The notes under the pieces are model-generated. The model had not been told where the DNA came from. It did not search any database and saw nothing but the letters and a program-made list of their open reading frames with translations. From the NCBI GenBank assembly GCA_942492525.1, contig CALOFI010000005.1, positions 64,001-128,000 of the forward strand: a DNA stretch of 64,000 nt. The letters run 5' to 3'. The position numbers were made by a program, and so were the translations under genes. Below are positions 2,485 through 42,475 of this stretch, piece after piece. Origin of the DNA: an uncultured Myxococcales bacterium (GTDB lineage Bacteria > Myxococcota_A > Polyangia > Haliangiales > Haliangiaceae). The first letter of the stretch is position 1. Every line of letters starts with the position of its first letter.

Positions 2485-3272
2485 CCACCGCGCTGATCTT
2501 CGCGCTGGCGGTGGTGTCCACGCTGGGCGCGGGGGTCGCCACCGATCCGGCCGGGCTGCGCGCGGCGCTGCGCGGGCCCGGCGTCGCGCTCGCGGTGGTG
2601 ATGCAGACGCTGGCGCTGCCCGCCGCCGCCTGGCTCGCGATCACCGGGCTCGACCTCGGCGCCGCCGGCGCCGGCCTGCTGGTCGCCGCCGCCGCGCCGG
2701 GCGGCAGCACCGGTCCATTGCTCGCGCTGCTGGCCGGCGGCGAGGCGGCGCTCGCCGCCGCGCTGTTCCTGGTGCTGACGCTCGCCGGCACGATCACCGC
2801 GCTGGCCGCGACGCTCGCCTTCGACGTCGCCGGGGTTGCGGCGGTCGCGCGCGCCGCGGCGATCGTGACGGCGGTCGGGGTCGCGCCGCTGCTCGCCGGG
2901 CTGGTGCTCGGCGCGCGCCGGCCGACCGTGGCGCGCCGCCTGGCCCGGCCGCTCACCGCGCTGGGCGCGCTGCTGCTGATCGCGACGATCGGCGCGCTCG
3001 CCGCCCGCCACGCCGGCGCGCTCGCCGCGCCGCGGGTCCTGGCGGTCGCGCTGGGCCTGGTGCTGCTGTCGATGCTCCCCGCGCTGCGCGCCGCGCCGCG
3101 CGCGCGCGCCGTCGCGGTCGCCCAGGTCGGTGCGGTTCGCAACCTCACGCTCGCGCTGGTCGTGCTGACACCGGTCGGCGCGCCCGGGGCGGCGCTGGGC
3201 GCCGCGCTCTCGTACGGCCTGGTCATGTACGTCGCCACCGGCGGCGCGGCGATCGCGCTGCGCCGGGTATGA
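2481..3272 (+). CDS. polytopic membrane transporter-like protein (BART-superfamily / bile-acid:Na+ symporter or ACR3-like fold, tentative)
   Basis: GTG 2481 overlaps the upstream stop. 264 aa, essentially all hydrophobic helices rich in Ala/Leu/Gly, consistent with an 8-10 TM carrier. Family assignment is by composition and context only. Confidence 0.4.
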   Translation: MTTALIFALAVVSTLGAGVATDPAGLRAALRGPGVALAVVMQTLALPAAAWLAITGLDLGAAGAGLLVAAAAPGGSTGPLLALLAGGEAALAAALFLVLTLAGTITALAATLAFDVAGVAAVARAAAIVTAVGVAPLLAGLVLGARRPTVARRLARPLTALGALLLIATIGALAARHAGALAAPRVLAVALGLVLLSMLPALRAAPRARAVAVAQVGAVRNLTLALVVLTPVGAPGAALGAALSYGLVMYVATGGAAIALRRV

Positions 3273-3278
3273 TGGCCC

Positions 3279-3671
3279 ATGGTCAGTCGTGAGCGCGCGG
3301 CGGCGCGCATGGTCGAGGTGCTCGATGCACCGCTGCTGCGCGCGCTGACCGAGCCGGCGCGCCTCGCGATCCTCCGCGTCCTGCTGATCCACGGCCCGGC
3401 CGACATCGCCACCATCGCCGAGCAGCTGCCGCAGGACCGCTCGGTGATCTCGCGTCACCTCAAGGTGCTCGAGGACGCCGGCGTCGTGCTCGGCGTCCGC
3501 GAGGGCCGCCACAACCGCTACCACCTCGACGGCGCCGGCTTCGTCGCCGAGCTCGAGCGCATCCTCGGCGAGACCCGGGCGCTGGCGGCGATCTGCTGCC
3601 CGCCGGTCGCCGAGATCATCCCGGCCGCACGCCTGCGCCGCGCCACCCGCCCGCCGGGGAAACCCGGATGA
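3279..3671 (+). CDS. arsR: ArsR/SmtB-family metalloregulatory transcriptional repressor
   Basis: LTEPARLAILRVLLIHGPADIATIAEQLPQDRSVISRHLKVLEDAGVV is the canonical ArsR winged-HTH; C-terminal Cys pair (ICCPP). An ArsB-type permease follows in the same operon. Confidence 0.8.
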   Translation: MVSRERAAARMVEVLDAPLLRALTEPARLAILRVLLIHGPADIATIAEQLPQDRSVISRHLKVLEDAGVVLGVREGRHNRYHLDGAGFVAELERILGETRALAAICCPPVAEIIPAARLRRATRPPGKPG

Positions 3672-4552
3672 GCAGCCCGCGCCGCACGCCGCCGCACGCC
3701 GCCGCCCGCCACGTGCCGCACTGGCGGTCGCGCCGCCCCGGTCCCGACCGCAGCTACGTCTACCTCGCCGATCATCTGCGGGCCGCCGACCGCGCCGAGA
3801 TCATGGCGTGGCTCGCGACGCTGCGCCCGATCTGGGAGCAGCGCTACTCGACGCGTCGCCCGCCGCCGACGGGTCGCGAGCAGCGCCCGCTGCTGCGGCC
3901 GGTGTACTGGCTGGGCAACTGGCAGTTCGCCTGCCTCGGCTACTACATGCCGCCGCGCGGCATCCACGACCGCTGCGTCCGCGCCGAGCCGTTCCCGCCA
4001 GTGCTGACCCGGCTGACCGCGGCGGTCGAGGCGCGCGTCCGCAAGGAGTTCCCGCCCGCCGACGTGCCGGCCGGCTGGCGGCTCGACACCTGCCTGGTGA
4101 ACTTCTACGGCGACCGCCTCGAGCACGGGCGCTGGATCGACGCCGCGCGGGTCGGCGAGCATCGCGATCTCGAGCCCGGCCCGGTCGCGTCGCTGTCGAT
4201 CGGCGAGCGCGCGCTGATGCAGTTCATCGAGCGCGGCGCCGACGGTCCGCCGGCGCGCACGCAGTGGCTCGACGACGGCTCGCTGCAGATCTTCGCCGGC
4301 CCGCGCTGGAAGGATCGCCTGCTCCACCGCATCCAGCGCGTCGACGACAAGCGCGGCCTCGCGCTGCCGCCGGCGCTCGACGGCTTCCGCACCCGGCGCG
4401 TGAACTTCACCTTCCGGCACGTCCCGCCGGTGCACGTCACGCCGTTCGCCCGGCTGGCGCCGCGCGCGCGCGACGACGTCCGCGACTACGTCGCCCAGCT
4501 CGCCGCCGGCTCGCCGTTCTGGCGGGCGGCGCTGGAGGCGCCGGGCCCGTGA
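3668..4552 (+). CDS. AlkB-like Fe(II)/2-oxoglutarate-dependent dioxygenase with N-terminal extension
   Basis: Blocks align to E. coli AlkB: CLVNFY (AlkB CLINRY), GEHRDLEPGPVASLSIGERALMQF (HQDKDEPDL..PIVSVSLGLPAIFQF), LLHRIQRV (second His), RVNFTFRHV (RYNLTFRQ). Start overlaps the arsR stop. Confidence 0.6.
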   Translation: MSSPRRTPPHAAARHVPHWRSRRPGPDRSYVYLADHLRAADRAEIMAWLATLRPIWEQRYSTRRPPPTGREQRPLLRPVYWLGNWQFACLGYYMPPRGIHDRCVRAEPFPPVLTRLTAAVEARVRKEFPPADVPAGWRLDTCLVNFYGDRLEHGRWIDAARVGEHRDLEPGPVASLSIGERALMQFIERGADGPPARTQWLDDGSLQIFAGPRWKDRLLHRIQRVDDKRGLALPPALDGFRTRRVNFTFRHVPPVHVTPFARLAPRARDDVRDYVAQLAAGSPFWRAALEAPGP

Positions 4553-5799
4553 CCGAGCTGCTCGCGTACGGCGCGCTGGCGACGATGCTGGGCATCGTCC
4601 TGTGGCGGCCGCACGGCTGGGGCCCCGCGCTCGGCGCTGGCGTCGCGTGCGCCATCCTCGCCGCCGCCGGGCTGGTCGAGGCCGGCGATCTCGAGCACGC
4701 CGCGCGCGGGCTGTGGCGCCCGATCGTCACGCTGGTGGCGATCATGGTCATGACCGTCGCCGCCGAGCACCTCGGCGTGATCGATCGCCTCGCCGCGGTG
4801 ATCGAGCCGCGCACCCGTGGCCCGGTCCGCCACGCGTTCCGGGTCACGTTCGTGATCGCCGCGCTGGTCGCCGCGGTGCTGTCGAACGACGGCGCGATCC
4901 TGCTGCTCACGCCGGCGGTGATCGTGCTGATCCGCGCGGTCTATCCGCGCCGCTACCCGCGCTTCCAGTTCGCGTTCGCGTTCGCGGTCTTCGCCGGGGC
5001 CGGGGTCGCGCCGCTGGTCATCTCCAACCCGATGAACCTGATCGCCGCCAGCCACGCCGGCATCACCTTCAACGCGTACGCCGCGCTGATGGTGCCGGTC
5101 GCGGCGGCGAGCTGGCTGGCCACCTACGCGTGCCTGGCGTGGATCTTCCGCGACGTCCTCGACGACGAGGCGCCGGCGCTGGGGGCCTGGCCGGCCGCGC
5201 CGCCGCTGCGGTCCGAGGCCTGGCTGGTGGTCGTCGTGCTCGCCGTGGTCCTGCTCGCGTACCCGATCACCTCGTACTTCGACGGCCCCTTGTGGGTGGT
5301 CGCGGCCGCCGGCGCGATCCTGTGCATCGCCGCCTCGCTGAACGCCGGCGTCGGCGCCGACCGGCTGGCCCGCGGCGTGTCGTGGAGCATCCTGCCGTTC
5401 CTGGTCGGCGTGCTGATCGTCGCGCTCGCGCTCGAGCGCGCCGGCGCGGTCGCGCGCCTGGCCACGCTCTTCAGCGACAGCCCGGCGCCCTTGCCCACCA
5501 TCGGCATCACCGCGGCGATCGGCTCGGCCATCCTCAACAACCACCCGATGTCGCTGCTCGACGCGCTCGCGCTCGACCGGGTCGCCGGCAGCGGCGACGT
5601 CCACGTGCTGGCCGCGCTGATCGGCGGCGACCTGGGACCGCGCCTGTTGCCGGTCGGCTCGCTGGCCGGCCTGCTCTGGCTCGACATCATGCGCCGCGCC
5701 GGGATCGAGGTGCGGCTGAGCATGTTCGTCCGTGTCGGCCTGGTGCTCACGGCCGTGCCGATGACGGCCTCGCTGCTGGTGCTCTGGTTGCTGTCCTGA
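4549..5799 (+). CDS. arsB: ArsB/NhaD-superfamily arsenite/antimonite efflux permease-like membrane protein
   Basis: GTG 4549 overlaps the upstream stop (GTGA). 416 aa, about 12 TM helices with ArsB-like blocks (LLLTPAVIVLIRAVYPRRYPRFQFAFAFAVFAGAGVAPLVISNPMNLIAA; AAIGSAILNNHPMSLL). Lies downstream of arsR. Confidence 0.7.
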   Translation: MTELLAYGALATMLGIVLWRPHGWGPALGAGVACAILAAAGLVEAGDLEHAARGLWRPIVTLVAIMVMTVAAEHLGVIDRLAAVIEPRTRGPVRHAFRVTFVIAALVAAVLSNDGAILLLTPAVIVLIRAVYPRRYPRFQFAFAFAVFAGAGVAPLVISNPMNLIAASHAGITFNAYAALMVPVAAASWLATYACLAWIFRDVLDDEAPALGAWPAAPPLRSEAWLVVVVLAVVLLAYPITSYFDGPLWVVAAAGAILCIAASLNAGVGADRLARGVSWSILPFLVGVLIVALALERAGAVARLATLFSDSPAPLPTIGITAAIGSAILNNHPMSLLDALALDRVAGSGDVHVLAALIGGDLGPRLLPVGSLAGLLWLDIMRRAGIEVRLSMFVRVGLVLTAVPMTASLLVLWLLS

Positions 5800-5816
5800 T
5801 CGGCTACGCTGCGCCG

Positions 5817-6815
5817 ATGCGCACCCTCGTGCTGAGCTCCCTCGTGCTGGCTGCGAGCGGCTGCGGTGGCGACGACGACGGCGTCGACCCGGCCGTCGAC
5901 GCCGCGGCTGGCGCCGATGCCGACGGCGCGCGCTGGCAGCCGGCGCCTGCGGTCATCGACGGCGCGATCCAGGAGACCGCGGCGGTCGCGCTCGACGGGC
6001 GCATCTACGTCATCGGCGGCTTCGACGGCGCGCTGGCGATCCAGCGCGCGGTGCGGATCTTCGACGTCGCCGCCGGGACCTGGGCGCACGGCCCCGAGTT
6101 GCCGCGGGCGGTCCACCACGCCAACGCCGCCGTCGTCGACGGCACGATCTATGTCGTCGGCGCGCTCGAGTCGTTCCAGTTCAGCGCCACCGGGCTGATC
6201 TGGGCGTGGAACCCCGCGACCGACGCCGCCTGGCAGGAGCGCGGCGCGATGCCGGCCGGCACCGAGCGCGGCGCGGCGGTCACCGCCGTGCTCGACGGCC
6301 GCATCTACGTCGCCGGCGGGCTGCGCGGTGGCGCCGCGGTCGCCGACGTCTCCGCTTACGATCCGGGAGCCGGCACCTGGGACGACACCGTGCCCGATCT
6401 GCCGGCGCCACGCGACCACGCCTGCGGCGGCGTGGTGGCCGGCGCGCTGCACGTCGTCGGCGGACGCCAGGTCGACATCGGCTCGACCGAGCGCACCACG
6501 TGGGCGCTGGCGCCCGGCGGCGCGTGGAGCGTCCGCCAGCCGATGATCACCGGCCGCGGCGGCACCGGCTGCGGCGTGATCGACGATCGCTTGATCGTCG
6601 TCGGTGGCGAGGGCAACCCGGACGTCAGCAGCGGCGTGTATCCGCAGACCGAGGCGTACGATCCCGCGCTCGACACCTGGACCGCGCTCGAGCCGATGCG
6701 AACGCCGCGCCACGGCATGGGCGCGGCGAGCTGGAACGGCGTGCTCCACGTGCCCGGCGGCGCCACCGTGCAGAGCTTCGGCGCCGTCGACGTCCACGAG
6801 ACCTTCACGCCGTAG
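5817..6815 (+). CDS. Kelch-repeat (beta-propeller) lipoprotein
   Basis: N-terminus MRTLVLSSLVLAASGCGG (lipobox). At least five repeats of the Kelch signature (RIYVIGG, TIYVVGA, RIYVAGG, ALHVVGG, RLIVVGG) with spaced Trp/Tyr residues. Confidence 0.7.
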   Translation: MRTLVLSSLVLAASGCGGDDDGVDPAVDAAAGADADGARWQPAPAVIDGAIQETAAVALDGRIYVIGGFDGALAIQRAVRIFDVAAGTWAHGPELPRAVHHANAAVVDGTIYVVGALESFQFSATGLIWAWNPATDAAWQERGAMPAGTERGAAVTAVLDGRIYVAGGLRGGAAVADVSAYDPGAGTWDDTVPDLPAPRDHACGGVVAGALHVVGGRQVDIGSTERTTWALAPGGAWSVRQPMITGRGGTGCGVIDDRLIVVGGEGNPDVSSGVYPQTEAYDPALDTWTALEPMRTPRHGMGAASWNGVLHVPGGATVQSFGAVDVHETFTP

Positions 6816-7326: not shown

Positions 7327-8275
7327 TCAGGGAAACGCGCGGCGGCGACGGCTGTCGCGGTCCAGCAGCTCGCGATCGATCCGCGCGGCGTCGTCGAGCT
7401 GCCGGGGCGGCACCGCGGCGCCGCGGAGCACGTCGCGGATCACGCCGACGACGTCGGGGTCGGCGAGGATACGACGGTGCCCGAGGCCCGCGGTCCCGAC
7501 CATGCGCGCGCCCGGCCAGGGCCTGGACGGTCGCGGCGCCCTCGGCGAACGGGACCTCGCGGTCGCCGACGTCGTGGATCACCGTGAGCGCGGCGGTCTG
7601 CGCGGGCGCGAGCGCGCGGCCGTCGAGCGCGAGCGCGCTGGCCTGGTTGGCGTCGGCCAGCGCCGCCACGAACACGGTCCGCGCGCGCGCCGACAGGCCG
7701 GCCGCGGCCGCGAACCGGTCGATCGCGGCCTCGATGCCGAACACCGGCGCGACGTAGACCACGCGCCGCGCGGTCAGCCCTTGCGCCAGCGCGACGGTGG
7801 TGGCGGCGGCGCCGAACGAGTGCGCGACGATCGCCTCGACGCCGCCGGCGGCGTCGGCCACGGCCCGGACCTCACGGGCCAGGTGCGCGAGCGTGAGCTG
7901 GTGCGCGTCGCTGTCGCCGTGCGCCGTCGCGTCGAACGCGACCACGCGGAAGCCGGCGTTGACCAGCGGCGGGATCAGCGCGCCGAGCTGGGTGCCGCGG
8001 CCGCCCCAGCCGTGGACCAGCAGCACCGTCGGTCCCTCGCCCCAGCTCCAGGCCGCGATCGCGTGGCGCTCGCGCACCACCGTCAGCGGCGTCGCGACCG
8101 CGAGCAGCGCGACCTCCGGCGCAGGCCGCGCGCCGCGCGGCGGGCTGAGGAACGAGCGCACCGCCAGGCGCGCCGCGACCCGCGGCGACAGCCGGTCGGC
8201 GACCGCGACGACGCCGCGCAGGGCGGCGATTCCATGACGAACGTTCGTGCTTTTTTCTGGGTGCGACGATGCCAT
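7327..8275 (-). CDS. alpha/beta-hydrolase fold protein, apparently frameshifted near 7490-7500
   Basis: TVLLVHGWGG, AHSFGAA (GxSxG nucleophile elbow), Asp and His regions. After LAGRAHG the ORF-track frame becomes Arg/Pro junk, while the -1 frame continues plausibly (MVGTAGLGHRRILADPDVVGVIRDVLRG...) to a TGA at 7327-7329. Confidence 0.5.
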
Positions 8276-8296
8276 GACCAGCCTCCGGTGTGCGGT

Positions 8297-8869
8297 TCAG
8301 TGCGCGCGCTCGAGCAGCGCGTCGAGCGCCCGCCGAGCACGAGTCGAGATCCTGGGCTCGCCGAGCAGGCGGCCCATCGTGTGATACGCCATCAGGATGC
8401 CGTGCGCCTCGAACGCGAGCTGCCGCGCATCGACGTCGGCGCGCAGGTGCCCCTCGTCGATCGCGATCCTGGCGGCGCTGGTGAGGGTGTCGAGCCAGTC
8501 GCGCATCGCGGCGGCCACCGCGTCGCGCGCGGGGCCGGGACGATCGTCGAGCTCCGTCGAGAGCTGCACGAAGATGCACGCCTGCTCGCCCCACTTCATC
8601 CAGCGCTCGACCAGCGCGCGCAAGCGCGGCTCGCCGCGCGCCACCTTGAGCGCCGGCGCGATGACCTGGGCCACGAACAGCCCGCGGGCGTGCTCGATCA
8701 CGGCCAGCTGCAGGGCCTCCTTGCTGCCGAAGTGCGCGAACAGGCCGCTCTTCGACAGCTCGAGCGCCGAGGCGAGCTGCCCGATGGTCAGCGCCTCGAG
8801 CCCCAGCGTGCGCGCCAGCTCGGTGGCGCGGTCCAGGATGTTCGTGCGGGTGGCTTCGCCCTTGCGCAT
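8297..8869 (-). CDS. TetR/AcrR-family transcriptional regulator
   Basis: MRKGEATRTNILDRATELARTLGLEALTIGQLASALELSKSGLFAHFGSKEALQLAV is the TetR N-terminal HTH signature; 190 aa. Confidence 0.85.
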   Translation of the reverse strand: MRKGEATRTNILDRATELARTLGLEALTIGQLASALELSKSGLFAHFGSKEALQLAVIEHARGLFVAQVIAPALKVARGEPRLRALVERWMKWGEQACIFVQLSTELDDRPGPARDAVAAAMRDWLDTLTSAARIAIDEGHLRADVDARQLAFEAHGILMAYHTMGRLLGEPRISTRARRALDALLERAH

Positions 8870-34723: not shown

Positions 34724-35596
34724 GCGCTGATGGCAGACCAACCTGAGCACGTCCTGGCGGCCCTGCTCGGCCCACGCGCGCGGCCCGACGGGCTGACCTG
34801 GCTCGACGCGACGATCGCCGAGATCGAGGTCGGCCGCGGCGAGCTGCCGGTGGCGTTCCCGGCGGTGTCGCGGCTGATCGGCCGCGGCGGGCTCGACGCG
34901 CCCGGCGCGGAGGTGGTCACCGCCGGCGGCGACACGATCGCGCTGGCGGCCTGGCGCCTCGACGACGCCGCCCGGGTCCGGCTGCTGCTCGCGGCTGCGC
35001 GCCACGCGCCCGGCCAGGCGCTGGCCACCGCCGGCCAGCTCTACGAGCACGGCGACGCGCGCGAGCGCGCCGGCGTGCTGCGCGCGCTCTCGCTCCTGCC
35101 CGGCGCCGACGACGACGCCACCGCGCTGCCGGTGATCCTCGACGCCATGCGGGTGACCCAGGGCGAGATCTTCGAGGCCGCGATCTGCGACAGCCCGTAC
35201 GCGTCGCGCCACCTACCGCAGCACGAGTGGCGCAAGGCCGTGCTCAAGGCGCTGTTCATCGGCATGTCGATCCGCCGGATCGCCCACGTCGAGGCGCGCA
35301 CCGACGCCGAGCTGGCGCAGAGCCTGCTCGACTTCGCCGCCGAGCGCGAGGCCGCGTCGCGCAGCGTGCCGCACGAGCTGTGGCCGCTGGCCGCGCGGTT
35401 CCCACCGCCCGGCCTGGCCGCCAAGCTGCTCGGCTACCTCGAGCACCCGGCGCCCGAGCACCGCGCCGCCGCGGCCGAGGCGCTGGCCGCGCTGGTGCCC
35501 GCCGATCCGCGGCTGCGCCCGTTCCTCGTCGATCGCGGCGCTCGCGAGCGCGACGACACCGTCAAGGATGCGCTGCGGCGCGCCATCGCCGGCTGA
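34724..35596 (+). CDS. EboA-like protein (first gene of ebo/edb-type clusters; no known catalytic domain)
   Basis: 290-aa soluble Ala/Leu/Arg-rich helical protein placed immediately upstream of the TatD / TIM-barrel / phosphodiesterase genes. Assignment is mainly by conserved gene context; sequence is helical-repeat-like (..VLRALSLLPGADDDATALPVILDAMRV.. / ..LLGYLEHPAPEHRAAAAEALAAL..). Confidence 0.45.
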   Translation, partial: ALMADQPEHVLAALLGPRARPDGLTWLDATIAEIEVGRGELPVAFPAVSRLIGRGGLDAPGAEVVTAGGDTIALAAWRLDDAARVRLLLAAARHAPGQALATAGQLYEHGDARERAGVLRALSLLPGADDDATALPVILDAMRVTQGEIFEAAICDSPYASRHLPQHEWRKAVLKALFIGMSIRRIAHVEARTDAELAQSLLDFAAEREAASRSVPHELWPLAARFPPPGLAAKLLGYLEHPAPEHRAAAAEALAALVPADPRLRPFLVDRGARERDDTVKDALRRAIAG

Positions 35597-35618
35597 CCCG
35601 CCTGCCCCGGAGACCCTC

Positions 35619-36488
35619 ATGCGCATCTTCGAACCCCACGCCCACATGTACTCGCGGATCACCGACGACTACGAGCAGATGTCGCTCGCCGGCGTCGAGG
35701 CGATCCTCGAACCCGCGTTCTGGCTGGGCCAGCCGCGCACCCACGTCGGCACGTTCCTCGACTACTTCGACGCCCTGCTCGGCTGGGAGCGCTACCGCGC
35801 CGCCCAGTACGGCGTGCACCACTTCTGCGCGATCGCGCTCAACCCCAAGGAGGCCAACGACGACCGCGTCAACGCCGGGGTGCTCGAGGCGATGCCGCGC
35901 TACCTCGCCAAGGACGGCGTGCTCGCGGTCGGCGAGATCGGCTTCGACGACATGACCGACCGCGAGGAGAAGTTCTTCGCCGCGCAGCTGGAGCTGGCCC
36001 GCACCCACGGCCTGCCGGCGCTGATCCACACCCCGCATCGCGACAAGAAGAAGGGCGTGCAGCGCACGCTCGACGTGCTGCGCGACGTCGGCTTCCCGAT
36101 GGAGCGCGCGCTCGTCGATCACAACAACGAGGAGACCGTCGGCATGTGCGCCGAGGTCGGCTGCTACATCGGCTTCTCGATCTACCCCGACACCAAGATG
36201 GACGAAGGGCGGATGGTCGCCGTGCTGCAGAAGTGGGGCACCGAAAAGGTGATCCTCAACAGCGCGTGCGACTGGGGCAAGAGCGACCCGCTCAAGGTCG
36301 CCAAGACCGCGCTGCGCATGAAGCGCGGCGGCTTCGCCGCGGCCGAGGTCGACAAGGTGGTCTGGCACAACCCGATCGCGTTCTTCGCGCAGTCGGGCCG
36401 CCTGGTCGAGGCCGACCTCGACGCCCGCCCGGCGCTCGACGGCGAGCTGTTCAGCGGCAACAGCATCCTGCGCGGCCAGAGTCAGTAG
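35619..36488 (+). CDS. TatD-family metal-dependent hydrolase (EboB-like)
   Basis: MRIFEPHAHMYS (HxH metal motif at N-terminus), AVGEIGFD, LPALIHTPHRD, VDHNNEE; TIM-barrel amidohydrolase pattern of the TatD family; 289 aa. Confidence 0.75.
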   Translation: MRIFEPHAHMYSRITDDYEQMSLAGVEAILEPAFWLGQPRTHVGTFLDYFDALLGWERYRAAQYGVHHFCAIALNPKEANDDRVNAGVLEAMPRYLAKDGVLAVGEIGFDDMTDREEKFFAAQLELARTHGLPALIHTPHRDKKKGVQRTLDVLRDVGFPMERALVDHNNEETVGMCAEVGCYIGFSIYPDTKMDEGRMVAVLQKWGTEKVILNSACDWGKSDPLKVAKTALRMKRGGFAAAEVDKVVWHNPIAFFAQSGRLVEADLDARPALDGELFSGNSILRGQSQ

Positions 36489-36492
36489 CGCG

Positions 36493-37620
36493 ATGCTGCT
36501 CACCGCCGCCGACGGGCGGCCGCTCCACCTCGGCTACTGCTACAACGTGCTGCCCGGCGAGACCGTGGCCGCGCTGATCGATCAGATCGCACGGATCTGC
36601 GAGCCGGTGCGCGCGCGGCTGGGCGTCGCGCGGCTGGGCGTCGGGCTCTGGATCGCGCGCGGCGCGGCCGCCGAGCTGCGCGCCAGCGCCGACGCGCTCG
36701 CGTCGCTGCGCGAGGCGCTCGACGAGGCCGGCCTGTACTGCTTCACGCTGAACGGCTTCCCGTACGGCGGCTTCCACGCGCCGCGGGTCAAGGAGCGGGT
36801 CTTCGAGCCGAGCTGGGCCAGCGGCGCCCGCGTCGACTACACGATCGACCTCGCCGAGATCCTCGCGGCGCTCTTGCCCGACGACGTCGCGGTCGGCTCG
36901 ATCTCGACGGTGCCGCTGGGCCCGGCGACGGTCGATCCGGACGCCGCGCGCCGCGGCCTGGCCCGCGCCGCCGCCGCGTTCGCCGCGATCACGGCGCGCA
37001 CCGGCAAGCGCATCGAGCTGGCGGTGGAGCCCGAGCCGGGCGCCGGCTTCGAGCGGGTCGACGCGCTGGTCGATTACCTGCGCGCGCCCGACACCGGCGC
37101 GGTCGGGGTCTGCCTGGACTGCTGCCACGCGGCGGTCGTGGGTGAGGATCCGGCCGAGGCCTTCGCCGCGATGAACCGCCACGGCATCCGCTGCGCCAAG
37201 ATCCAGATCTCCAGCGCGCTGGTGGTGCCGCGTCCAGACCTGGACATCGGCCGGGTCGGCGCGTTCGACGAGCCGCGCTTCCTGCACCAGGTGCGCAGCG
37301 AGCGCGGCGGTGCGATGGACATCCCCGAGGCGATGATGCTGCTGGATCGCGACGTGCCCTGGCGGATCCACTTCCACGTGCCGGTGCACGACGCCGATCT
37401 CGGCGAGCTGGCGACCACGCGCGACGAGATCGCGCCGGTGCTGGCCGCGGCGCTGGCCGCGCCCGGCGAGCTACCGCACCTCGAGGTCGAGACCTACACC
37501 TGGAGCATCCTGCCCGACGGACGGCGGCCCGCCGACGACGCCGGCCTGGTCGACGGCATCGCGCGGGGGCTCGCGTGGACCCTGGCGCTGCTCGCGCAGC
37601 TGGGAGCGAAGCCGGCATGA
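36493..37620 (+). CDS. xylose-isomerase-like TIM-barrel protein (sugar-phosphate isomerase/epimerase family; EboE-like)
   Basis: LGYCYNVLPGET, GLYCFTLNGFPYGG, IELAVEPEPG, VCLDCCHAAV, HFHV; the metal-binding E/D/H pattern of the AP-endonuclease-2 / xylose isomerase-like fold. 375 aa; stop overlaps the next start (ATGA). Confidence 0.65.
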   Translation: MLLTAADGRPLHLGYCYNVLPGETVAALIDQIARICEPVRARLGVARLGVGLWIARGAAAELRASADALASLREALDEAGLYCFTLNGFPYGGFHAPRVKERVFEPSWASGARVDYTIDLAEILAALLPDDVAVGSISTVPLGPATVDPDAARRGLARAAAAFAAITARTGKRIELAVEPEPGAGFERVDALVDYLRAPDTGAVGVCLDCCHAAVVGEDPAEAFAAMNRHGIRCAKIQISSALVVPRPDLDIGRVGAFDEPRFLHQVRSERGGAMDIPEAMMLLDRDVPWRIHFHVPVHDADLGELATTRDEIAPVLAAALAAPGELPHLEVETYTWSILPDGRRPADDAGLVDGIARGLAWTLALLAQLGAKPA

Positions 37621-39002
37621 GCACCCGAGCGCCCGTGGTCGTGATCGACGTGGTCGGCATGACGCCGGACCTGTTGCCGTACATGCCAAAGCTGGCGGCG
37701 CTGGGCCGCGACGGCTTCACCGCGCCGCTCGGCACGGTGCTGCCCGCCGTCACGTGCTCGGCGCAGTCGACGCTGCTGACCGGCGCGCTGCCGCGCGAGC
37801 ACGGCGTCGTCGGCAACGGCTGGTTCTTCCGCGAGCTGTCGGAGATCTGGCTGTGGCGGCAGTCGAACGCGCTGGTCGGCGGCGACAAGCTGTGGGACGC
37901 GGCGCGCCGGGTGCTGGGCACCGACGTCAAGGTCGCCAACCTGTTCTGGTGGTACGCGATGGGCGCGGCGACCGACGTCATCGTCACGCCGCGCCCGGTC
38001 TACTACGCCGACGGCAAGAAGGCGCCGGGCGTGTACACCCGCCCCGCCGCGCTCGGCCCCGAGCTGGCCAAGTGGCTGGGCGAGTTCCCGCTGTTCCAGT
38101 TCTGGGGCCCGGGCGCCGGGCTGCCGGCGTCGAGCTGGATCGCCGCGGCGGCGAAGCGGGTCTTCGACGAGCAGCGCCCCGAGCTGACGCTGGTCTACCT
38201 GCCGCACCTCGACTACGACCTGCAGCGCCACGGCAGCAAGGGCCCCGAGGCGCGCGCCGCCGCCGCCGCGATCGACGAGGTCGCCGGCGCGCTGGCCGAG
38301 CACGTCCGCGCCGCCGGCGCGACGGTCGTCGTGCTCAGCGAGTACGGCATCACCGACGTGTCGCGCCCGGTCCACGTCAACCGCCGGCTGCGCGAGGCCG
38401 GGCTGCTCGAGGTGGTGTGGAACCCGGCCGGCGAGCTGCTCGACACCTTCGCCTCGCCGGCGTTCGCGGTGGCCGATCACCAGATCGCCCACGTCTACGT
38501 CCGCGATCCGGCGATGCTGCCGCGGGTGAAGGAGGCGCTCGCCGACCTGCCCGGCGTCGCCGAGATCCTCGACGACGACGGCAAGCGCGCCGCCGGGCTG
38601 GATCACCCGCGCGCCGGCGAGCTGGTGCTGATCGCCGAGCCCGACGCCTGGTTCACCTACTACTACTGGCTCGACGATGTCCGGGCGCCGGACTTCGCGC
38701 CCACCGTCGAGATCCATCGCAAGCCCGGCTACGACCCCGCCGAGCTGCTGTTCGCGGGCGGCGGCGCCAAGGCGCGCGCCGGCCTGCGGCTGGCGCAGAA
38801 GGCGCTGGGCTTCCGCTACACGATGGACGTGATCCCGCTCGACGCCTCGGGCGTGAAGGGCTCGCACGGCCGCCTGCCCGCGCGCGACGGCGACGGCCCG
38901 GTGCTGCTGTGCAGCGACGCGCGCTTCGGCCAGGATCGCTTCGCGGCGACCGACGTGAAGGGCCTGGTGCTCGATCTCATGGGCGCCGAGGGCCGCCGGT
39001 AG
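37617..39002 (+). CDS. alkaline-phosphatase-superfamily nucleotide pyrophosphatase/phosphodiesterase (EboF-like)
   Basis: VVVIDVVGMTPDLL, PAVTCSAQSTLLTG (nucleophile Thr/Ser in the metal site), VYLPHLDYDLQRHG, VLSEYG, HVYV; matches the type I phosphodiesterase/NPP layout. 461 aa. Confidence 0.7.
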   Translation: MSTRAPVVVIDVVGMTPDLLPYMPKLAALGRDGFTAPLGTVLPAVTCSAQSTLLTGALPREHGVVGNGWFFRELSEIWLWRQSNALVGGDKLWDAARRVLGTDVKVANLFWWYAMGAATDVIVTPRPVYYADGKKAPGVYTRPAALGPELAKWLGEFPLFQFWGPGAGLPASSWIAAAAKRVFDEQRPELTLVYLPHLDYDLQRHGSKGPEARAAAAAIDEVAGALAEHVRAAGATVVVLSEYGITDVSRPVHVNRRLREAGLLEVVWNPAGELLDTFASPAFAVADHQIAHVYVRDPAMLPRVKEALADLPGVAEILDDDGKRAAGLDHPRAGELVLIAEPDAWFTYYYWLDDVRAPDFAPTVEIHRKPGYDPAELLFAGGGAKARAGLRLAQKALGFRYTMDVIPLDASGVKGSHGRLPARDGDGPVLLCSDARFGQDRFAATDVKGLVLDLMGAEGRR

Positions 39003-39019
39003 CGGCGCGATCCGCGCGC

Positions 39020-39793
39020 CTACTCGTCCTCGGGCTCGGCGGGCTCCGCGGCCGGCTCGGCGGCGAGCAGGCGGTGCAGGAACTGCTCGCGGTGGCCGAG
39101 GAAGTCGCGACTCAGCCGGACCAGCTCGGTGTCGTCGTACGCCACGGCAGCGATGCCGGTGTCGTCGAGCTGGTAGATGAGCGCGTCCGGATACGCCAGC
39201 ACCAGCGGCGCGTGGGTCGCGATGATCAGCTGCGAGCCCTGCTGCACCAGCTGGTGGATGTGCACCAGCAACGACAGCTGCCGGGCCGGCGACAGCGCGG
39301 CCTCGGGCTCGTCGAGGATGTACAGGCCGCCCGGGCCGAAGCGATGGTTCAGCAGCGCCAGGAAGGCTTCGCCGTGCGACTGCTCGTGCAGCGAGCGGTC
39401 GCCATAGCCGCCGACGCCGAGCCGCTCGATCTCGGTCGCGACGTTGAAGAAGCTCTCGGCGCGCAGGAAGTACCCGGTGCGCGGCCGGCGGGTGCGCGCG
39501 ACCCGCAGGTGCTTGTGCAAGGGCGACTCCGACGACCGGGTCTCGAAGCGGAAGTTGCCGCTGCCACCCTCGGGATTGAAGCCGCACACGATCGCGAGCG
39601 CCTCGAGGATCGTCGACTTGCCCGACCCATTCTCGCCGACGAAGTACGTGACCGCGGCCAGCGGCAGCTCGTCGAGCGCGCGCACCGCGGGCAGCGCGAA
39701 CGGGTACGCGTCGAGATCCTCGACCGTGTCGCGCAGCAGGTCGAGGCTGCGCACGAACGGCGGTGGTGTCGGGCGGGCGCGCCGGGCCGGCAT
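39020..39793 (-). CDS. AAA_21-type ATP-binding protein (SMC/RecF-like ABC ATPase without a partner permease)
   Basis: Walker A VGENGSGKSTILEAL, Q-loop/signature region, Walker B LYILDEPEAALSP, His switch IIATHAP; 257 aa. No transmembrane partner adjacent. Confidence 0.65.
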   Translation of the reverse strand: MPARRARPTPPPFVRSLDLLRDTVEDLDAYPFALPAVRALDELPLAAVTYFVGENGSGKSTILEALAIVCGFNPEGGSGNFRFETRSSESPLHKHLRVARTRRPRTGYFLRAESFFNVATEIERLGVGGYGDRSLHEQSHGEAFLALLNHRFGPGGLYILDEPEAALSPARQLSLLVHIHQLVQQGSQLIIATHAPLVLAYPDALIYQLDDTGIAAVAYDDTELVRLSRDFLGHREQFLHRLLAAEPAAEPAEPEDE

Positions 39794-39850
39794 GGCCCGA
39801 CCGTCTCACGGCGGCCGCGCACGGTGCGACATCGCGGGGCGCGCGCGGCG

Positions 39851-40237
39851 TCAGCGCGCGCCGCGGTCGAAGTCGGCCTGCGCCGCGCGGCAGGCCCGGG
39901 TCCGCCTCATGCCCAGCAGGCCGGACTGCACGAAGCCGGCGGTGCCGGCGATGAGGAACACGGCGCCCACCATGATCGTGCCGTTGAGGTGCCCGGTCCC
40001 CTCGATCGTGTTGCCCTCCGAGTCGTCGGTCGCGGCGCCGACCACGACCAGCGTCAGCCCCGCGACCGCCGCGGCGGCGGCGCCGAGGAAGTCGTGCTTG
40101 ATCGCCGGCGTCTCGGCGGTGCACGCCGGCCGCGTCGCCCACGGCCGCGGCGGCGCCGGCGTCACCGTGAGAAACGAGCAGCCGCTGGTCACGAGCGCGA
40201 GCACCACCACCAGCGAGCCTCGACCGCGCATCATGCG
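39851..40237 (-). CDS. small lipoprotein/membrane protein, function unknown
   Basis: MMRGRGSLVVVLALVTSGC lipobox, then a second hydrophobic stretch (AAAAVAGLTLVVVGAATDD, IMVGAVFLIAGTAGFV); 128 aa. Confidence 0.4.
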   Translation of the reverse strand, partial: RMMRGRGSLVVVLALVTSGCSFLTVTPAPPRPWATRPACTAETPAIKHDFLGAAAAAVAGLTLVVVGAATDDSEGNTIEGTGHLNGTIMVGAVFLIAGTAGFVQSGLLGMRRTRACRAAQADFDRGAR

Positions 40238-40363
40238 ACCATCATAGGATTGCGCCGGGCGCGGATCGACACCCATGCCGGGTAGTTCCCCGTGAGGCCG
40301 CGCGGGCCGCCGGCCGCGACCCCTGCCCCCGGGGGCGCAGGTTCGTCGTCGCAGATGCGGACG

Positions 40364-41200
40364 CTACGGCGCGGTCAGGAACTCGAAGGCGCGGCGCGCG
40401 ACGCGGACGGCGTCGTGGCTGTGGCGCGACAGCTCGAGCGTCGCCGGGCCGGCGTAGCCGACCTCGGTGAGCACGCGCATCACGGCGCGGACGTCGAGAT
40501 CGCCTTCCCACGGCACCAGGTGATCGTGGACGGGCTTGCGCATGCCCTCGACCTGGACGTTGACGATCGCGTCGGCCCAGGCGCGCACCGTGGCCTCGGC
40601 GCCGTCGGGCTCGGTGATGTGGGCGTGGCCGACGTCGAGCGTGAGCAGGAAGGCGGGGTCGTCGACCAGCGCGCGGACGCGGGCGAAGCCGGCCATGTCC
40701 TCGAGGTACATGCCCGGCTCGGGCTCGAAGCCGATGACCACGCCGGCGGCGCGGGCGTGGACGCAGACCGCGCGCAGGCCGTCGGCGAGGCGGGCGTCGA
40801 GCGCGGCGGCGGTGGCGTCGTCGCCCTCGTCAGGCGAGCCCGACCACAAGGACACCACCGACGCGCCGACCGCGGCGGCGGCATCGACGGCCTGGCCGAG
40901 GAAGGCGACGCGGGCGGCGCGCTCGGCCGGATCGCGCGACAGCAGCGTCGGCTTGTGCTTGCGCCGGGCGTCGAGCAGGAAGCGCGCGCCGGTCTCGATC
41001 ACCGGCTGCAGGTCGAGGTCGCGACACACAGCGGCGACCTCGCGCAGCTCGGCGGCGTGACCGGGCGCGAATGGATCGAGGTGGTGGACGTCGAGGGTGA
41101 CGCCCACCGAGCGATAGCCGAGCTCGGCGATCACCGCGAGGGCGTCGAGCAACCGGTGGTGCGCGAAGCCGTTGGTGTTGTAGCCGAGCCGCATGGTCAC
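40364..41200 (-). CDS. second xylose-isomerase-like TIM-barrel protein (sugar-phosphate isomerase/epimerase)
   Basis: MRLGYNTNGFAHHRL..., VIGFEPEPGM, LTLDVGHAHI, HLVPWEGDLD: the same fold signature as the 36493 gene but a distinct paralogue. 278 aa. Confidence 0.7.
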   Translation of the reverse strand: MTMRLGYNTNGFAHHRLLDALAVIAELGYRSVGVTLDVHHLDPFAPGHAAELREVAAVCRDLDLQPVIETGARFLLDARRKHKPTLLSRDPAERAARVAFLGQAVDAAAAVGASVVSLWSGSPDEGDDATAAALDARLADGLRAVCVHARAAGVVIGFEPEPGMYLEDMAGFARVRALVDDPAFLLTLDVGHAHITEPDGAEATVRAWADAIVNVQVEGMRKPVHDHLVPWEGDLDVRAVMRVLTEVGYAGPATLELSRHSHDAVRVARRAFEFLTAP

Positions 41201-41257
41201 GCCGTCTCCTCGCAGGCGCGCGCCGGCAGCGACGCGAGCGGGCCTTCCCGCGACGCG

Positions 41258-41434
41258 CCCTTCGACTCCGGGCTCGCTTCGCTCGCCCTGCGCTCAGGGT
41301 GAGCGGAGCTGGTGGTGTGGCTGCGACGAGAGGGTTCATCAGCAAGAGTCGAGCTGCAGACTGCGGGCGCGATCTCGATCACGGTCCGCTCACCCTGAGC
41401 GCAGGGCGAGCGAAGCGAGCCCGGAGTCGAAGGG
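41258..41434. repeat. perfect 49-bp inverted repeat (arms 41258-41306 and 41386-41434) separated by a 79-bp spacer; MITE/REP-like or long-hairpin RNA element
   Basis: Arm 1 cccttcgactccgggctcgcttcgctcgccctgcgctcagggtgagcgg; arm 2 is its exact reverse complement. A partial third copy of the inner motif (ggggtgagcg..gggggttcatcgcgac) lies about 41521-41567; the spacer contains gagggttcatcagc. Confidence 0.8.
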
Positions 41435-41584
41435 CGGGTTGCACACTGTCGGCCTGGAGGATGGTGTTCTCGGCGCCGGGCCTCGGCTCGCCCCGAGGCT
41501 GACCGTCGATGGAGCTCGCGCCGCTCGGGGTGAGCGTCGTCGCCACAGCGGGGGTTCATCGCGACGACCATCCCGGCTCCGCCG

Positions 41585-42475
41585 CTACGTCGGCGAGAAG
41601 AACTGCTTGAGGATCAAGGCCGGCACGATCAGCGCGGCGACCGAGACCGCCCAGAACGGGCAGCCGGCGGACGCGACGATCGCGGCGTCGATGATCGGGA
41701 TCAGGACGATTCCGCCGCCGATGGCGCGACCGGTGGACGGGCCGTCGTGGCGGTGCCAGACCGGCGCCCAGTTGCGCCAGCCCAGCGCGACCGCGAGCCC
41801 GACCCACGGCCAGGCCCACGCGCTGCGCGGCAGGCACGGGCACGCGAGCAGCGCGACCAGCACCGCGCCGGCGAGCAGGGCCAGGAAGGTCAGGCCGGTG
41901 CGCGCGCGCCGCGTGGTGTTGCCGTCGACCTCGTCGCGCGCGATGTACGTCAGGCCGGTGACGTAGAGCGCGAGCACGATGGGGCCGGCCAGCGCGATGT
42001 GCGGCCAGGCGACGTCGAGCGACAGCCCGGTGGAGATCGCCAGCGCGACGTCGAGGCCGCGGCAGCTGCCCATCACCAGCGGACCGAGCTTGGTCTTCTT
42101 GAGACCGCCATCGTAGAGGAGGATGCAGCCCGCGAGCACCGCCGCGACGATGCCGGGCGCGCGACCGATCCACGCCGCGATGGCCACGCCGCCGATCATG
42201 AGCGCCGCGCCGAGCAGCGCCGCGAAGCGCACCGAGATCTCGCCGCTGGGGATGGGCCGGGTGGGCCGCTCGACCGCGTCGATGTCGCGATCGAAGACGT
42301 CGTTGAGCACGATGCCCGACAGGTAGAGCAGGCCGGAGGCCAGGATCACCGCGCAGGCGCGATCCGGGACGGCGAGCCCGAGGCCGCGCAGCACCAGCAG
42401 GCCGGCGATCGCGTCGGCGAACGAGGTGAAGACGTTCGGCGGCCGGATCAGCCGCAGCAGCGCGCCGACGTTCAC
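41585..42475 (-). CDS. UbiA-family aromatic/polyprenyl prenyltransferase (EboC-like)
   Basis: GTG 42475 overlaps the upstream stop (GTGA). First Asp-rich motif NDVFDRDIDAVERPTRPIPSG and second DEVDG-type motif (YIARDEVDGN), about 8 TM helices. 296 aa. Confidence 0.75.
   Translation of the reverse strand: MNVGALLRLIRPPNVFTSFADAIAGLLVLRGLGLAVPDRACAVILASGLLYLSGIVLNDVFDRDIDAVERPTRPIPSGEISVRFAALLGAALMIGGVAIAAWIGRAPGIVAAVLAGCILLYDGGLKKTKLGPLVMGSCRGLDVALAISTGLSLDVAWPHIALAGPIVLALYVTGLTYIARDEVDGNTTRRARTGLTFLALLAGAVLVALLACPCLPRSAWAWPWVGLAVALGWRNWAPVWHRHDGPSTGRAIGGGIVLIPIIDAAIVASAGCPFWAVSVAALIVPALILKQFFSPT

Follow-up and report, generated by a model that had tools for sequence, protein, structure and literature searches.

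The Correia elements (NEMIS) of Neisseria are intergenic sequences of 100-160 bp with inverted ends, which are co-transcribed and form a long RNA hairpin cleaved by RNase III. Found only in Neisseria, they have TA target duplications along with IHF sites. Dimers with members 20-100 bp apart, nesting in other palindromes and intragenic copies have all been described for the families of repetitive extragenic palindromes (REPs), and the GTAG superfamily of REPs carries the tag variants GYAG, GYRG, GTRG and GTMG at one foot of its stem (PMC3733652). Here we analyzed a long inverted repeat in a 64,000-nt stretch of DNA from an uncultured Myxococcales bacterium (assembly GCA_942492525.1, contig CALOFI010000005.1, positions 64,001 to 128,000; hereafter the window), where it separates a UbiA-family prenyltransferase gene from a xylose-isomerase-like TIM-barrel gene of an ebo-like cluster. 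We consider it likely that this repeat is inserted DNA, a gene-less dimer of units from a dispersed REP-like family.

The family shares several features with the REPs of E. coli and Pseudomonas, with the bacterial interspersed mosaic elements (BIMEs) and REPINs built from them, and with the tyrosine transposases that accompany REPs (RAYTs): a GC-rich stem-loop, a putative 4-nt tag at its foot and covarying stems (Di Nocera et al., 2013, PMC3733652). Like these, its units are found as singletons, head-to-head, tail-to-tail and tandem dimers and clusters, its dimers fold into a long hairpin, its copies are mostly extragenic with some intragenic, and a small nuclease gene is bracketed by inverted units. 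It is different from them in that the stem-loop is nested in a second conserved frame, CCCTTCGAC...GCTCAGGGTGAGCGG, which also exists alone, and in that the nucleotide sequence of this frame is conserved from phylum to phylum; most REPs, in contrast, are particular to one lineage. Moreover, the bracketed gene encodes a UPF0213 GIY-YIG protein and not a Y1/HUH RAYT, and the tag of the window copy is GCAG. The GTAG-23 REPs of Thermomicrobium roseum come close in another respect, their hairpin being embedded in an outer palindrome that is also unoccupied in many copies; however, that outer sequence is CCGSSCC n3-4 GGSSCGG, and the paper describing them reports no association with a nuclease gene (PMC3733652). 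At the RNA level, the Correia elements would be the most likely analogue of the window dimer, although no sequence similarity was seen. In-frame insertion into coding genes recalls the Rickettsia palindromic elements, from which the present family differs since those are 100-150 bp long, AT-rich and partly of the CGTC class of REPs, and the window copy is intergenic.

Two identical units form a head-to-head dimer

In a repeat search over the 64-kb window, the strongest inverted repeat was found at 41250-41442; its arms (41250-41307 and 41385-41442) were 58 nt long, 97% complementary and 77 nt apart, and the runner-up reached only 44 nt at 77%. The perfect core of the arms, determined by blastn, spanned 52 nt (41256-41307 against 41436-41385). 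The sequence-only reading had described arms matching at 49 of 49 positions around a 79-bp spacer; the perfect match is correct and was under-called by 3 nt, and the true spacer is 77 nt. A 48-mer taken from the arm matched the window twice without mismatches, at 41260-41307 on the plus strand and 41385-41432 on the minus strand, and never in 100 shuffles. The layout of the arm is CCCTTCGAC-TCC-GGGCTCGC-TTC-GCTCGCCC-TGC-GCTCAGGGTGAGCGG, and the features of the element are as follows.

41195-41584, no strand: non-coding block of 390 bp holding all three units, between the TIM-barrel start codon (41194) and the UbiA stop codon (41585-41587)
41250-41307, plus strand: left arm, one forward unit (perfect over 41256-41307; from the repeat search, blastn and comparison with at least 40 family members)
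41258-41266, plus strand: 5' half of the frame, CCCTTCGAC
41267-41269, plus strand: TCC of the left arm, between the 5' half of the frame and the nested hairpin
41270-41288, plus strand: nested hairpin GGGCTCGC-TTC-GCTCGCCC, with six of eight pairs formed and a tandem TC/TC mismatch
41289-41291, plus strand: tag TGC of the left arm (GCAG on the opposite strand)
41292-41306, plus strand: 3' half of the frame, GCTCAGGGTGAGCGG, which with C41291 makes the mini-palindrome CGCTCA-GGG-TGAGCG
41308-41384, no strand: spacer of 77 nt, the loop of the long hairpin; unique, with no relative in the fetched loci and a weak internal fold
41385-41442, minus strand: right arm, reverse copy of the unit (perfect over 41385-41436; from the repeat search and blastn)
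41514-41536, plus strand: decayed third unit with only its 3' part, GCTCGCGC-CGCTCgGGGTGAGCG, recognizable (local alignment against shuffles)

The GAGCGG ends of the two arms point inward, so that the pair is a forward-reverse dimer, and the REPIN trait of two inverted REPs with a short spacer forming one long hairpin is seen in it. The right arm and the third unit make up a pair of the opposite, reverse-forward kind, a polarity that was also found around GIY-YIG genes (see below). The 15-mer CGCTCgGGGTGAGCG at 41522-41536 was not significant by itself, as about 1.03 chance matches are expected and at least three were obtained in 6 of 100 shuffles. The local alignment of 23-25 nt between 41514-41536 and 41281-41305 had a score of 29, which only 5 of 1000 shuffled sequences and 5 of the 990 genomic windows also attained. 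A third copy had been noted earlier at about 150 bp further on; such a copy is real but weak, and it lies 78-88 nt past the right arm. No further units were detected in the 64-kb window beyond this single cluster, even with three mismatches allowed. The short sequence GGGTTCATC (ATGAACCC on the gene strand) was observed at 41333-41341 and 41552-41560, 25 nt after the left arm and 14 nt after the third unit, respectively; its presence after both forward units suggests that the stretch originally duplicated extended beyond the unit.

Folding was predicted for both forms of the nucleic acid. The sense RNA (411 nt) gave -255.5 kcal/mol with a z-score of -9.2 against shuffles, so that the transcribed strand, for which the sequence-only reading had suggested a fold prediction, is predicted to be far more stable than shuffled sequence, and the DNA strand (211 nt) gave -99.3 kcal/mol with a z-score of -13.9. 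The mirrored open reading frames (ORFs) that had been noticed on both strands (PSTPGSLRSPCAQGER) are genuine translations of the two arms.

The block is absent from six orthologous junctions

Both genes at the junction are intact, and they are read from the minus strand of a window with 74.5% G+C.

41585-42475, minus strand: UbiA-family prenyltransferase (eboC-like, Pfam PF01040), intact, 296 aa, with the C-terminus ...LKQFFSPT as in relatives
40364-41194, minus strand: xylose-isomerase-like TIM barrel (Pfam PF01261, E 2.4e-35), intact, 276 aa, ATG at 41194, MRLGYNTNGF...

A GGAG sits 11 nt upstream of the TIM-barrel start. The TIM-barrel protein was 100% identical to database entry P0001, and its nearest named relatives came from Kofleriaceae metagenome-assembled genomes (MAGs). 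The orthologous junction was compared in six relatives with 78-84% protein identity (L129, L130, L137/138, L139 and L140-142); at one extreme the two genes overlapped by 4 nt and at the other they were 21 nt apart, whereas 390 nt separate them in the window. Because the junction is short or overlapping in all six and both genes are intact, the whole block 41195-41584 is, by comparison of sequences, lineage-specific inserted DNA and not an ancestral regulator. The earlier claim that the element is an insertion into an ebo-like cluster, separating its UbiA gene from its TIM-barrel gene, is thus borne out by six junctions without the element. Within the 390-bp block, blastn revealed resemblance to other fetched loci in the arms alone, and no GIY-YIG gene or remnant was present in the block (relaxed tblastn and six-frame reading gave noise).

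The UbiA gene ends in ACG TAG in the window, containing GTAG (41583-41589); in L130 it ends in ACA TGA, and in the six relatives whose junction has a gap it ends in ACC TGA. The inserted block may therefore have its left border inside the last UbiA codons; GTAG is also a REP tag, which could be a coincidence.

Absence from the six orthologous junctions bears on the proposal that the hairpin is a selected cis-regulatory RNA, which either splits or stabilizes the operon transcript, as an RNase III site or a protector of the 3' end, or adjusts how much UbiA is made relative to the TIM-barrel protein. Transcribed REP and Correia-type repeats act in these ways, the predicted hairpin on the sense transcript is very stable, and its position is between co-oriented genes of one cluster; general statements on transcribed REPs also speak for the proposal (PMC3733652). 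However, an Rfam 15 search of 40800-42000 with E up to 10 returned at best E 0.097 and 18 bits, compared with a gathering threshold of 60, and no family was assigned. No promoter-like or terminator-like site was predicted in 40900-41900. Furthermore, only the arms are conserved, as a dispersed DNA repeat in unrelated contexts that include the inside of ORFs, and the base of the hairpin is at least 50 nt from the TIM-barrel ribosome-binding site. A dedicated and conserved regulatory or structured RNA, one of the options raised before, does not agree with the lack of an Rfam match, the absence from orthologous loci and the confinement of homology to the arms, and we regard a selected RNA function as improbable. 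The previous statement that the element is not an intrinsic terminator holds, as there was no terminator-like site and no T run after either arm. Among other structured candidates, a relic of a tRNA T-arm was rejected as the stem does not pair, small self-cleaving ribozymes as they had no Rfam match, and an integron attC site as there were no GTTRRRY core sites.

The same borders are informative about a MITE (miniature inverted-repeat transposable element) of the DDE type, in which the terminal inverted repeats of an insertion sequence (IS) would remain after deletion of the transposase and be mobilized in trans. The 193-bp size, the terminal inverted repeats and the intergenic position fit this explanation. 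On the other hand, no direct repeat was found at the arm borders (flanks gggccttccc and acactgtcgg), hence no target-site duplication, and the inverted repeat itself is not sharply delimited. In none of the fetched loci was a transposase seen beside units or with ends that match them, the units are mostly single or in tandem and not terminal pairs, and the repeated entity is the 26-50-nt unit itself. With neither a target-site duplication nor an IS with matching ends, the classical MITE proposed earlier is very improbable.

A chimeric palindrome created during assembly is hardly credible. Perfect palindromes can come from library or assembly errors, but here the arms are short, the 77-nt spacer is unique, the element lies between two intact and correctly ordered genes, and arms with 92% identity were recovered from independent assemblies.

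Units of the same kind are dispersed over many genomes

The two ends of the arm correspond to a motif that is common in environmental genomes and gives rise to the peptides PFDKLRVSG and PLTLSLSKG. With the pattern CCCTTCGAC-N(0-30)-GCTCAGGGTGAGCGG, 17 viral contigs were matched, mostly with a 2-nt gap of AA or AG. When the gap was set to N(3-30), at least 111 genome stretches were obtained, and the matches listed included Dehalococcoidia, Anaeromyxobacter, Kofleriaceae, other Myxococcota, Binatia, Dadabacteria, Dependentiae, Sphingomonadales and gammaproteobacteria. REPs of the GTAG superfamily number tens to hundreds per genome; Anaeromyxobacter PSR-1 and Dehalococcoidia OY762063.1 each had several loci among the matches listed. 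The frame alone constitutes a 26-nt short form, which was seen, among other groups, in Dehalococcoidia, Myxococcota, Binatia and Sphingomonadales.

In 1.1 Mb of motif-selected family loci, 286 core copies were counted, often clustered in all three relative orientations; neighboring cores within 450 nt comprised 14 forward-reverse pairs (the window type), 15 reverse-forward pairs and 65 tandem pairs. In the forward-reverse dimers, the two cores were 8-297 nt apart. Co-directional genes flank the window copy, many family copies follow stop codons, and in-frame intragenic exceptions exist. Single units occurring alongside inverted dimers of either polarity, tandems and clusters are what is known from REP/BIME families (PMC3733652), and of the options that the sequence-only reading had left open, membership of a repetitive extragenic palindrome family is the one that the arms support, as they belong to a dispersed family of many genomes.

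By blastn, the window arms were 92% identical to arms in the metagenome loci L131, L134 and L135 and in the Kofleriaceae locus L098. A strict pattern for the window subfamily was found in six metagenome contigs, which represent four loci, and near-identical units (47-48 of 48 positions) were present at three separate loci of one metagenome (L131, L134 and L135). A 48-nt unit was also located in frame inside the gene for apolipoprotein N-acyltransferase (Lnt) in the Kofleriaceae MAG (L098, 399-446) as well as in contigs L132 and L133. It adds 16 residues, PSTPGSLREPSAQGER, to the N-terminal domain; the ORF remains open and the LNT_N match spans the insert. When peptides derived from the arm were searched against a protein database, one match was obtained, the spurious ORF P0244, which crosses four units including one of window type; this search is unusable as a census of window-type units. 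Comparison of the element with plasmids by blastn and an exact search for the arm in viral contigs gave no match, and Rfam at gathering score recovered one tRNA only from 17 family loci.

Only the window dimer (57 nt, 2 mismatches) and that of the Chloroflexi locus L145 (60 nt, 6 mismatches) have long arms, and in other dimers they are at most 24 nt with mismatches. Under a purely local origin, replication template switching or hairpin-primed repair would have made an inverted copy of a single unit that was already in place, and the dimer as such would never have moved. It agrees with the 100% identity of the arms over 52 nt, with the lack of relatives elsewhere for the spacer and the rest of the 390-bp block, and with the single cluster in the window. 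It offers no account of the way in which a first unit or the 390-bp block came to lie in a junction that is near-gapless in relatives, and dimers of the same polarity recur in other genomes. As a full alternative we consider it unlikely; local duplication is compatible with insertion of a family dimer as one of its sub-steps.

Several further arrangements were noted at family loci. In L088 (3955-4060, minus strand), a long-form unit stands at the very start of a ferrochelatase-like ORF (MNLGGPRSLDEVEPYL...), with an imperfect direct repeat of about 20 nt, including ATGAACCT, on both sides; the target may have been duplicated here, or the start of the gene displaced. In Anaeromyxobacter sp. PSR-1 (L024, minus strand), four tandem 22-nt repeats, AGGCCGCGCGGAGTCGAGGGAC, are built from parts of the unit and lie just 3' of it. 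A Dehalococcoidia MAG (L065, 5402-5950) has four motif copies with a period of 171 nt; this tandem array is without spacer-like architecture, and a CRISPR repeat was rejected. In a Pacificimonas MAG (L121), a REP of the CGTC class as defined in PMC3733652 (TGTCATTCCCGCGCACGCGGGAATCCAG) occurs about 80 nt 3' of the unit, next to motif copies, so that two repeat families share intergenic clusters.

The nested hairpin covaries

The long form in the family consists of a frame half, T(C/G)C, a hairpin, (C)TAC and the other frame half, which is the architecture of the window arm. The sequence of the nested hairpin varies between genomes and its pairing is kept, and a hairpin is formed by the majority of inserts above 14 nt in length. 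Across 14 aligned units, seven of eight stem pairs had changes on both sides, and 84% of cells were paired, compared with 27-50% when the partner columns were slid. The outer frame halves were fixed by the search pattern, so their invariance is no evidence, and it is the stem covariation that counts. Because stem pairing is kept by compensatory changes while the sequence drifts, the selected feature is a folded single strand or a cruciform.

On the opposite strand, GTAG followed by an 8-bp stem, a 3-nt loop and the other side of the stem was read in 9 of the 14 aligned long-form units. The short GC-rich stem-loop that characterizes REPs, 20-40 nt in length with a stem of 6-13 bp and a short loop, is found both in the window unit (6 of 8 pairs) and in the family alignment. 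The window tag CTGC corresponds to GCAG, which fits GYAG, and the Kofleriaceae and metagenome relatives have GGAG or GAAG. The tandem TC/TC mismatch of the window stem (GA/GA on the opposite strand) recurs in the metagenome relatives. In Dehalococcoidia loci such as L019, L048 and L117, many short forms are preceded by CCGCTC(G/A), giving a longer hairpin, CCGCTC-ACCCT / AGGGT-GAGCGG, with a 12-nt loop, TCGAC-NNN-GCTC, in which the variable NNN is exactly the site of the REP-type hairpin in the long form.

These data invite a comparison with a classical REPIN, that is, a doublet of GTAG-type REPs mobilized as a single-stranded hairpin by a RAYT (Y1/HUH) encoded once per genome. The layout of the 9 units is the one that defines GTAG REPs (PMC3733652), the doublet with its 77-nt spacer fits the REPIN architecture (PMC3116915, PMC3337134), and the absence of a target-site duplication is expected for HUH enzymes. 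A weak Y1_Tnp gene is also located near the orthologous TIM barrel in the Kofleriaceae relative L129. However, this gene has no flanking motif, and no ORF resembling Y1/RAYT was detected in the window or in the 128 family loci by a regular expression for HUH and Y..NP or by tblastn with the L129 protein. The gene that units do bracket encodes a GIY-YIG nuclease, the window tag is GCAG, and the outer frame is common to many phyla, unlike lineage-specific REPs. A classical REPIN is thus quite unlikely, and the element is not filed as a REPIN proper, as no RAYT was found in the window or the family loci.

The L129 gene itself (7477-8408) is a 236-aa ORF with a weak Y1_Tnp (IS200/RAYT-like) match about 870 nt downstream of the orthologous TIM-barrel gene, and tandem GACCCGCGAC(G/A)... 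repeats precede it.

Inverted units bracket a UPF0213 GIY-YIG gene

In L135, two inverted long-form units with 92% identity to the window arms bracket a gene for a GIY-YIG protein of about 100 aa. The loci L131 and L134 have the same reverse-forward pair with only 7 nt between the units. The protein of L135 matched the PDB entries 1zg2 and 1ywl, both of UPF0213 (bacterial Slx1-like), which is a minimal GIY-YIG family described as repair-type, vertically inherited and without a DNA-binding domain (PMC1564403). It had 2256 homologues, and the named ones among the best 120 came from Anaeromyxobacter, Sphingomonadales and Chloroflexi/Dehalococcoidia, the taxa in which the motif is found. Of these best 120, 37 ended exactly in PST(S/G)SG, encoded as CCT TCG ACA AGC TCA GGG and followed by the stop TGA, so that the last six codons and the stop fall within the forward motif. 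A peptide of the forward motif was present at the C-terminus in 46 of the 120, and a reverse-motif peptide in six of eight long N-terminal extensions.

The DNA of three further homologues, from Anaeromyxobacter terrae (L143), Novosphingobium soli (L144) and a Chloroflexi MAG (L145), had a reverse unit in each case, located upstream of the start at a distance of about 18-75 nt. The forward unit overlaps the stop in L144, forward units lie about 100 nt downstream in L145, and in L143 a forward motif was deduced from the peptide LRQAQHER within the 3' part of the ORF. Units thus bracket a GIY-YIG gene in four genomes of three phyla (L135, L143, L144 and L145), and this UPF0213 gene was the sole gene found bracketed by inverted units. 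No GIY-YIG relative was confirmed in viral contigs. In the literature searched, nothing was found that links the motif or its peptides, or repeats of the REP or MITE kind, with GIY-YIG/UPF0213 proteins, and no homing activity of UPF0213 was found, which is no proof of novelty. The cassette of L135 lies inside a putative diversity-generating retroelement (2500-6200), judged from translations only, with a 503-aa protein having an FGE-sulfatase-like C-terminus, a small four-helix-bundle (Avd-like) ORF and a reverse-transcriptase-like ORF.

The homologues are 60-70% identical across phyla, which suggests horizontal spread. Like the free-standing GIY-YIG homing genes such as seg of phage T4, the gene interrupts a sequence that is found intact elsewhere (L135 compared with L131 and L134); it is unlike homing endonucleases in the properties of UPF0213 given above. 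The bracketed genes suggest a pairing like that of REPIN and RAYT with a different nuclease. It is possible, and put forward here tentatively, that the UPF0213 nuclease is the nuclease partner of the family or a homing gene that targets dimers of units. A wider proposal, which we regard as speculative and on balance doubtful, is that the 26-nt motif and the hairpin-bearing long form are non-autonomous partners of the UPF0213 GIY-YIG gene in a second, mechanistically different system of the REPIN/RAYT type; the structure-specific enzyme would mobilize the units or home into their dimers, horizontal transfer would have carried the system through Myxococcota, Chloroflexota and Alphaproteobacteria at least, and the window element would be a gene-less dimer.

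The cassette is characterized by a reverse unit upstream, a forward unit at or over the stop and inward CCCTTCGAC ends, and the window element does not have this arrangement. It is a gene-less relative of the GIY-YIG cassette and not a cassette; because the window has neither the gene nor a remnant and its dimer has the opposite polarity, the GIY-YIG link is a lead at the level of the family.

Origin of the window element

The element is probably a small BIME/REPIN-like cluster, made of a head-to-head dimer of two identical units of 50-odd nt and a decayed third unit, which entered the very short UbiA/TIM-barrel junction in this lineage alone. Units would multiply as DNA through a hairpin or cruciform, with a structure-specific nuclease acting in trans and repair or gene conversion making the copy, as in REPIN/RAYT systems. 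The candidate for the copying enzyme is the GIY-YIG nuclease, which could alternatively be a homing gene exploiting dimers of units. The 100% identity of the 52-nt arms would reflect a recent inverted duplication or hairpin-templated correction. If the two genes are still co-transcribed, the mRNA would carry a 58-bp duplex, a potential RNase III substrate and block to 3' exonucleases. With the insertion, the genes would lose the tight or translational coupling that they have in relatives, most likely as a side-effect and not as the reason for the element.

Several observations weigh against this origin. Only one cluster exists in the 64-kb window, so copy number in the source genome may be low; no units were found in about 70 kb of orthologous loci from relatives (scan of L129 and L130); and the strict subfamily pattern is confined to six contigs in the whole metagenome collection. 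Neither a RAYT gene nor a GIY-YIG gene was present in the window or the 128 loci selected by the first two pattern scans, and among all pattern-fetched loci only L135 has the latter. The polarity of the window dimer, with GAGCGG inward, is opposite to that of the GIY-YIG-bracketing pair, with CCCTTCGAC inward, and the window dimer is therefore no simple deletion derivative of the cassette. In length and perfection its arms far exceed those of other dimers, which local duplication would explain equally well. Finally, the tag is GCAG and not GTAG, and the nested stem has two mismatches. We nevertheless hold an inserted gene-less dimer of a dispersed REP-like family to be the probable explanation; this judgment covers the core claim only and excludes the partnership with GIY-YIG.

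Gene content of the ebo-like cluster

The gene set of an ebo-like cluster (TatD, TIM barrel, phosphodiesterase, UbiA and a cyclitol-forming enzyme) is present in the window; background on the ebo cluster is given in PMC5133447 and PMC6282210. An inositol-1-phosphate-synthase-like gene lies upstream of UbiA. Relatives have an EboA gene (PF28008), and the window ORF at that position matches only HEAT repeats. The remaining members, and the genes of a second insertion, are listed below.

35568-36488, plus strand: TatD, ebo-like cluster
36493-37620, plus strand: second TIM barrel, ebo-like cluster
37575-39002, plus strand: type I phosphodiesterase (Phosphodiest), converging on the minus-strand genes
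39020-39793, minus strand: AAA_21/ABC-type ATPase of 257 aa with weak generic matches to defence-system ATPases, second insertion
39851-40238, minus strand: ORF of about 129 aa with a signal/TM-like N-terminus and no family match, second insertion

The second insertion (39003-40363) is also lineage-specific and places two minus-strand genes between the TIM barrel and the convergent phosphodiesterase; the two genes that flank it abut or overlap in the relatives L139 and L140.

Biological meaning

A biosynthetic ebo-like operon has here been split by selfish-looking repeat DNA, which makes the locus a natural experiment on operon decoupling; the insertion puts a potential 58-bp RNA duplex between genes that are tightly coupled in all relatives. 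The family is set apart from the described REPs by a REP-type hairpin nested in a second frame, by conservation of the frame across phyla and by the association with GIY-YIG genes. REPs are normally lineage-specific and tied to RAYTs, and here a frame conserved across phyla occurs repeatedly around a minimal GIY-YIG nuclease of unknown function. If the pairing with GIY-YIG is functional, it would represent a new partnership between a nuclease and a repeat and account for a very common source of spurious ORFs in metagenomes, those with PFDKLRVSG, LSLSKG and PSTSSG peptides, and it would provide the widespread but uncharacterized UPF0213 proteins with a concrete substrate and a role that is directly testable.

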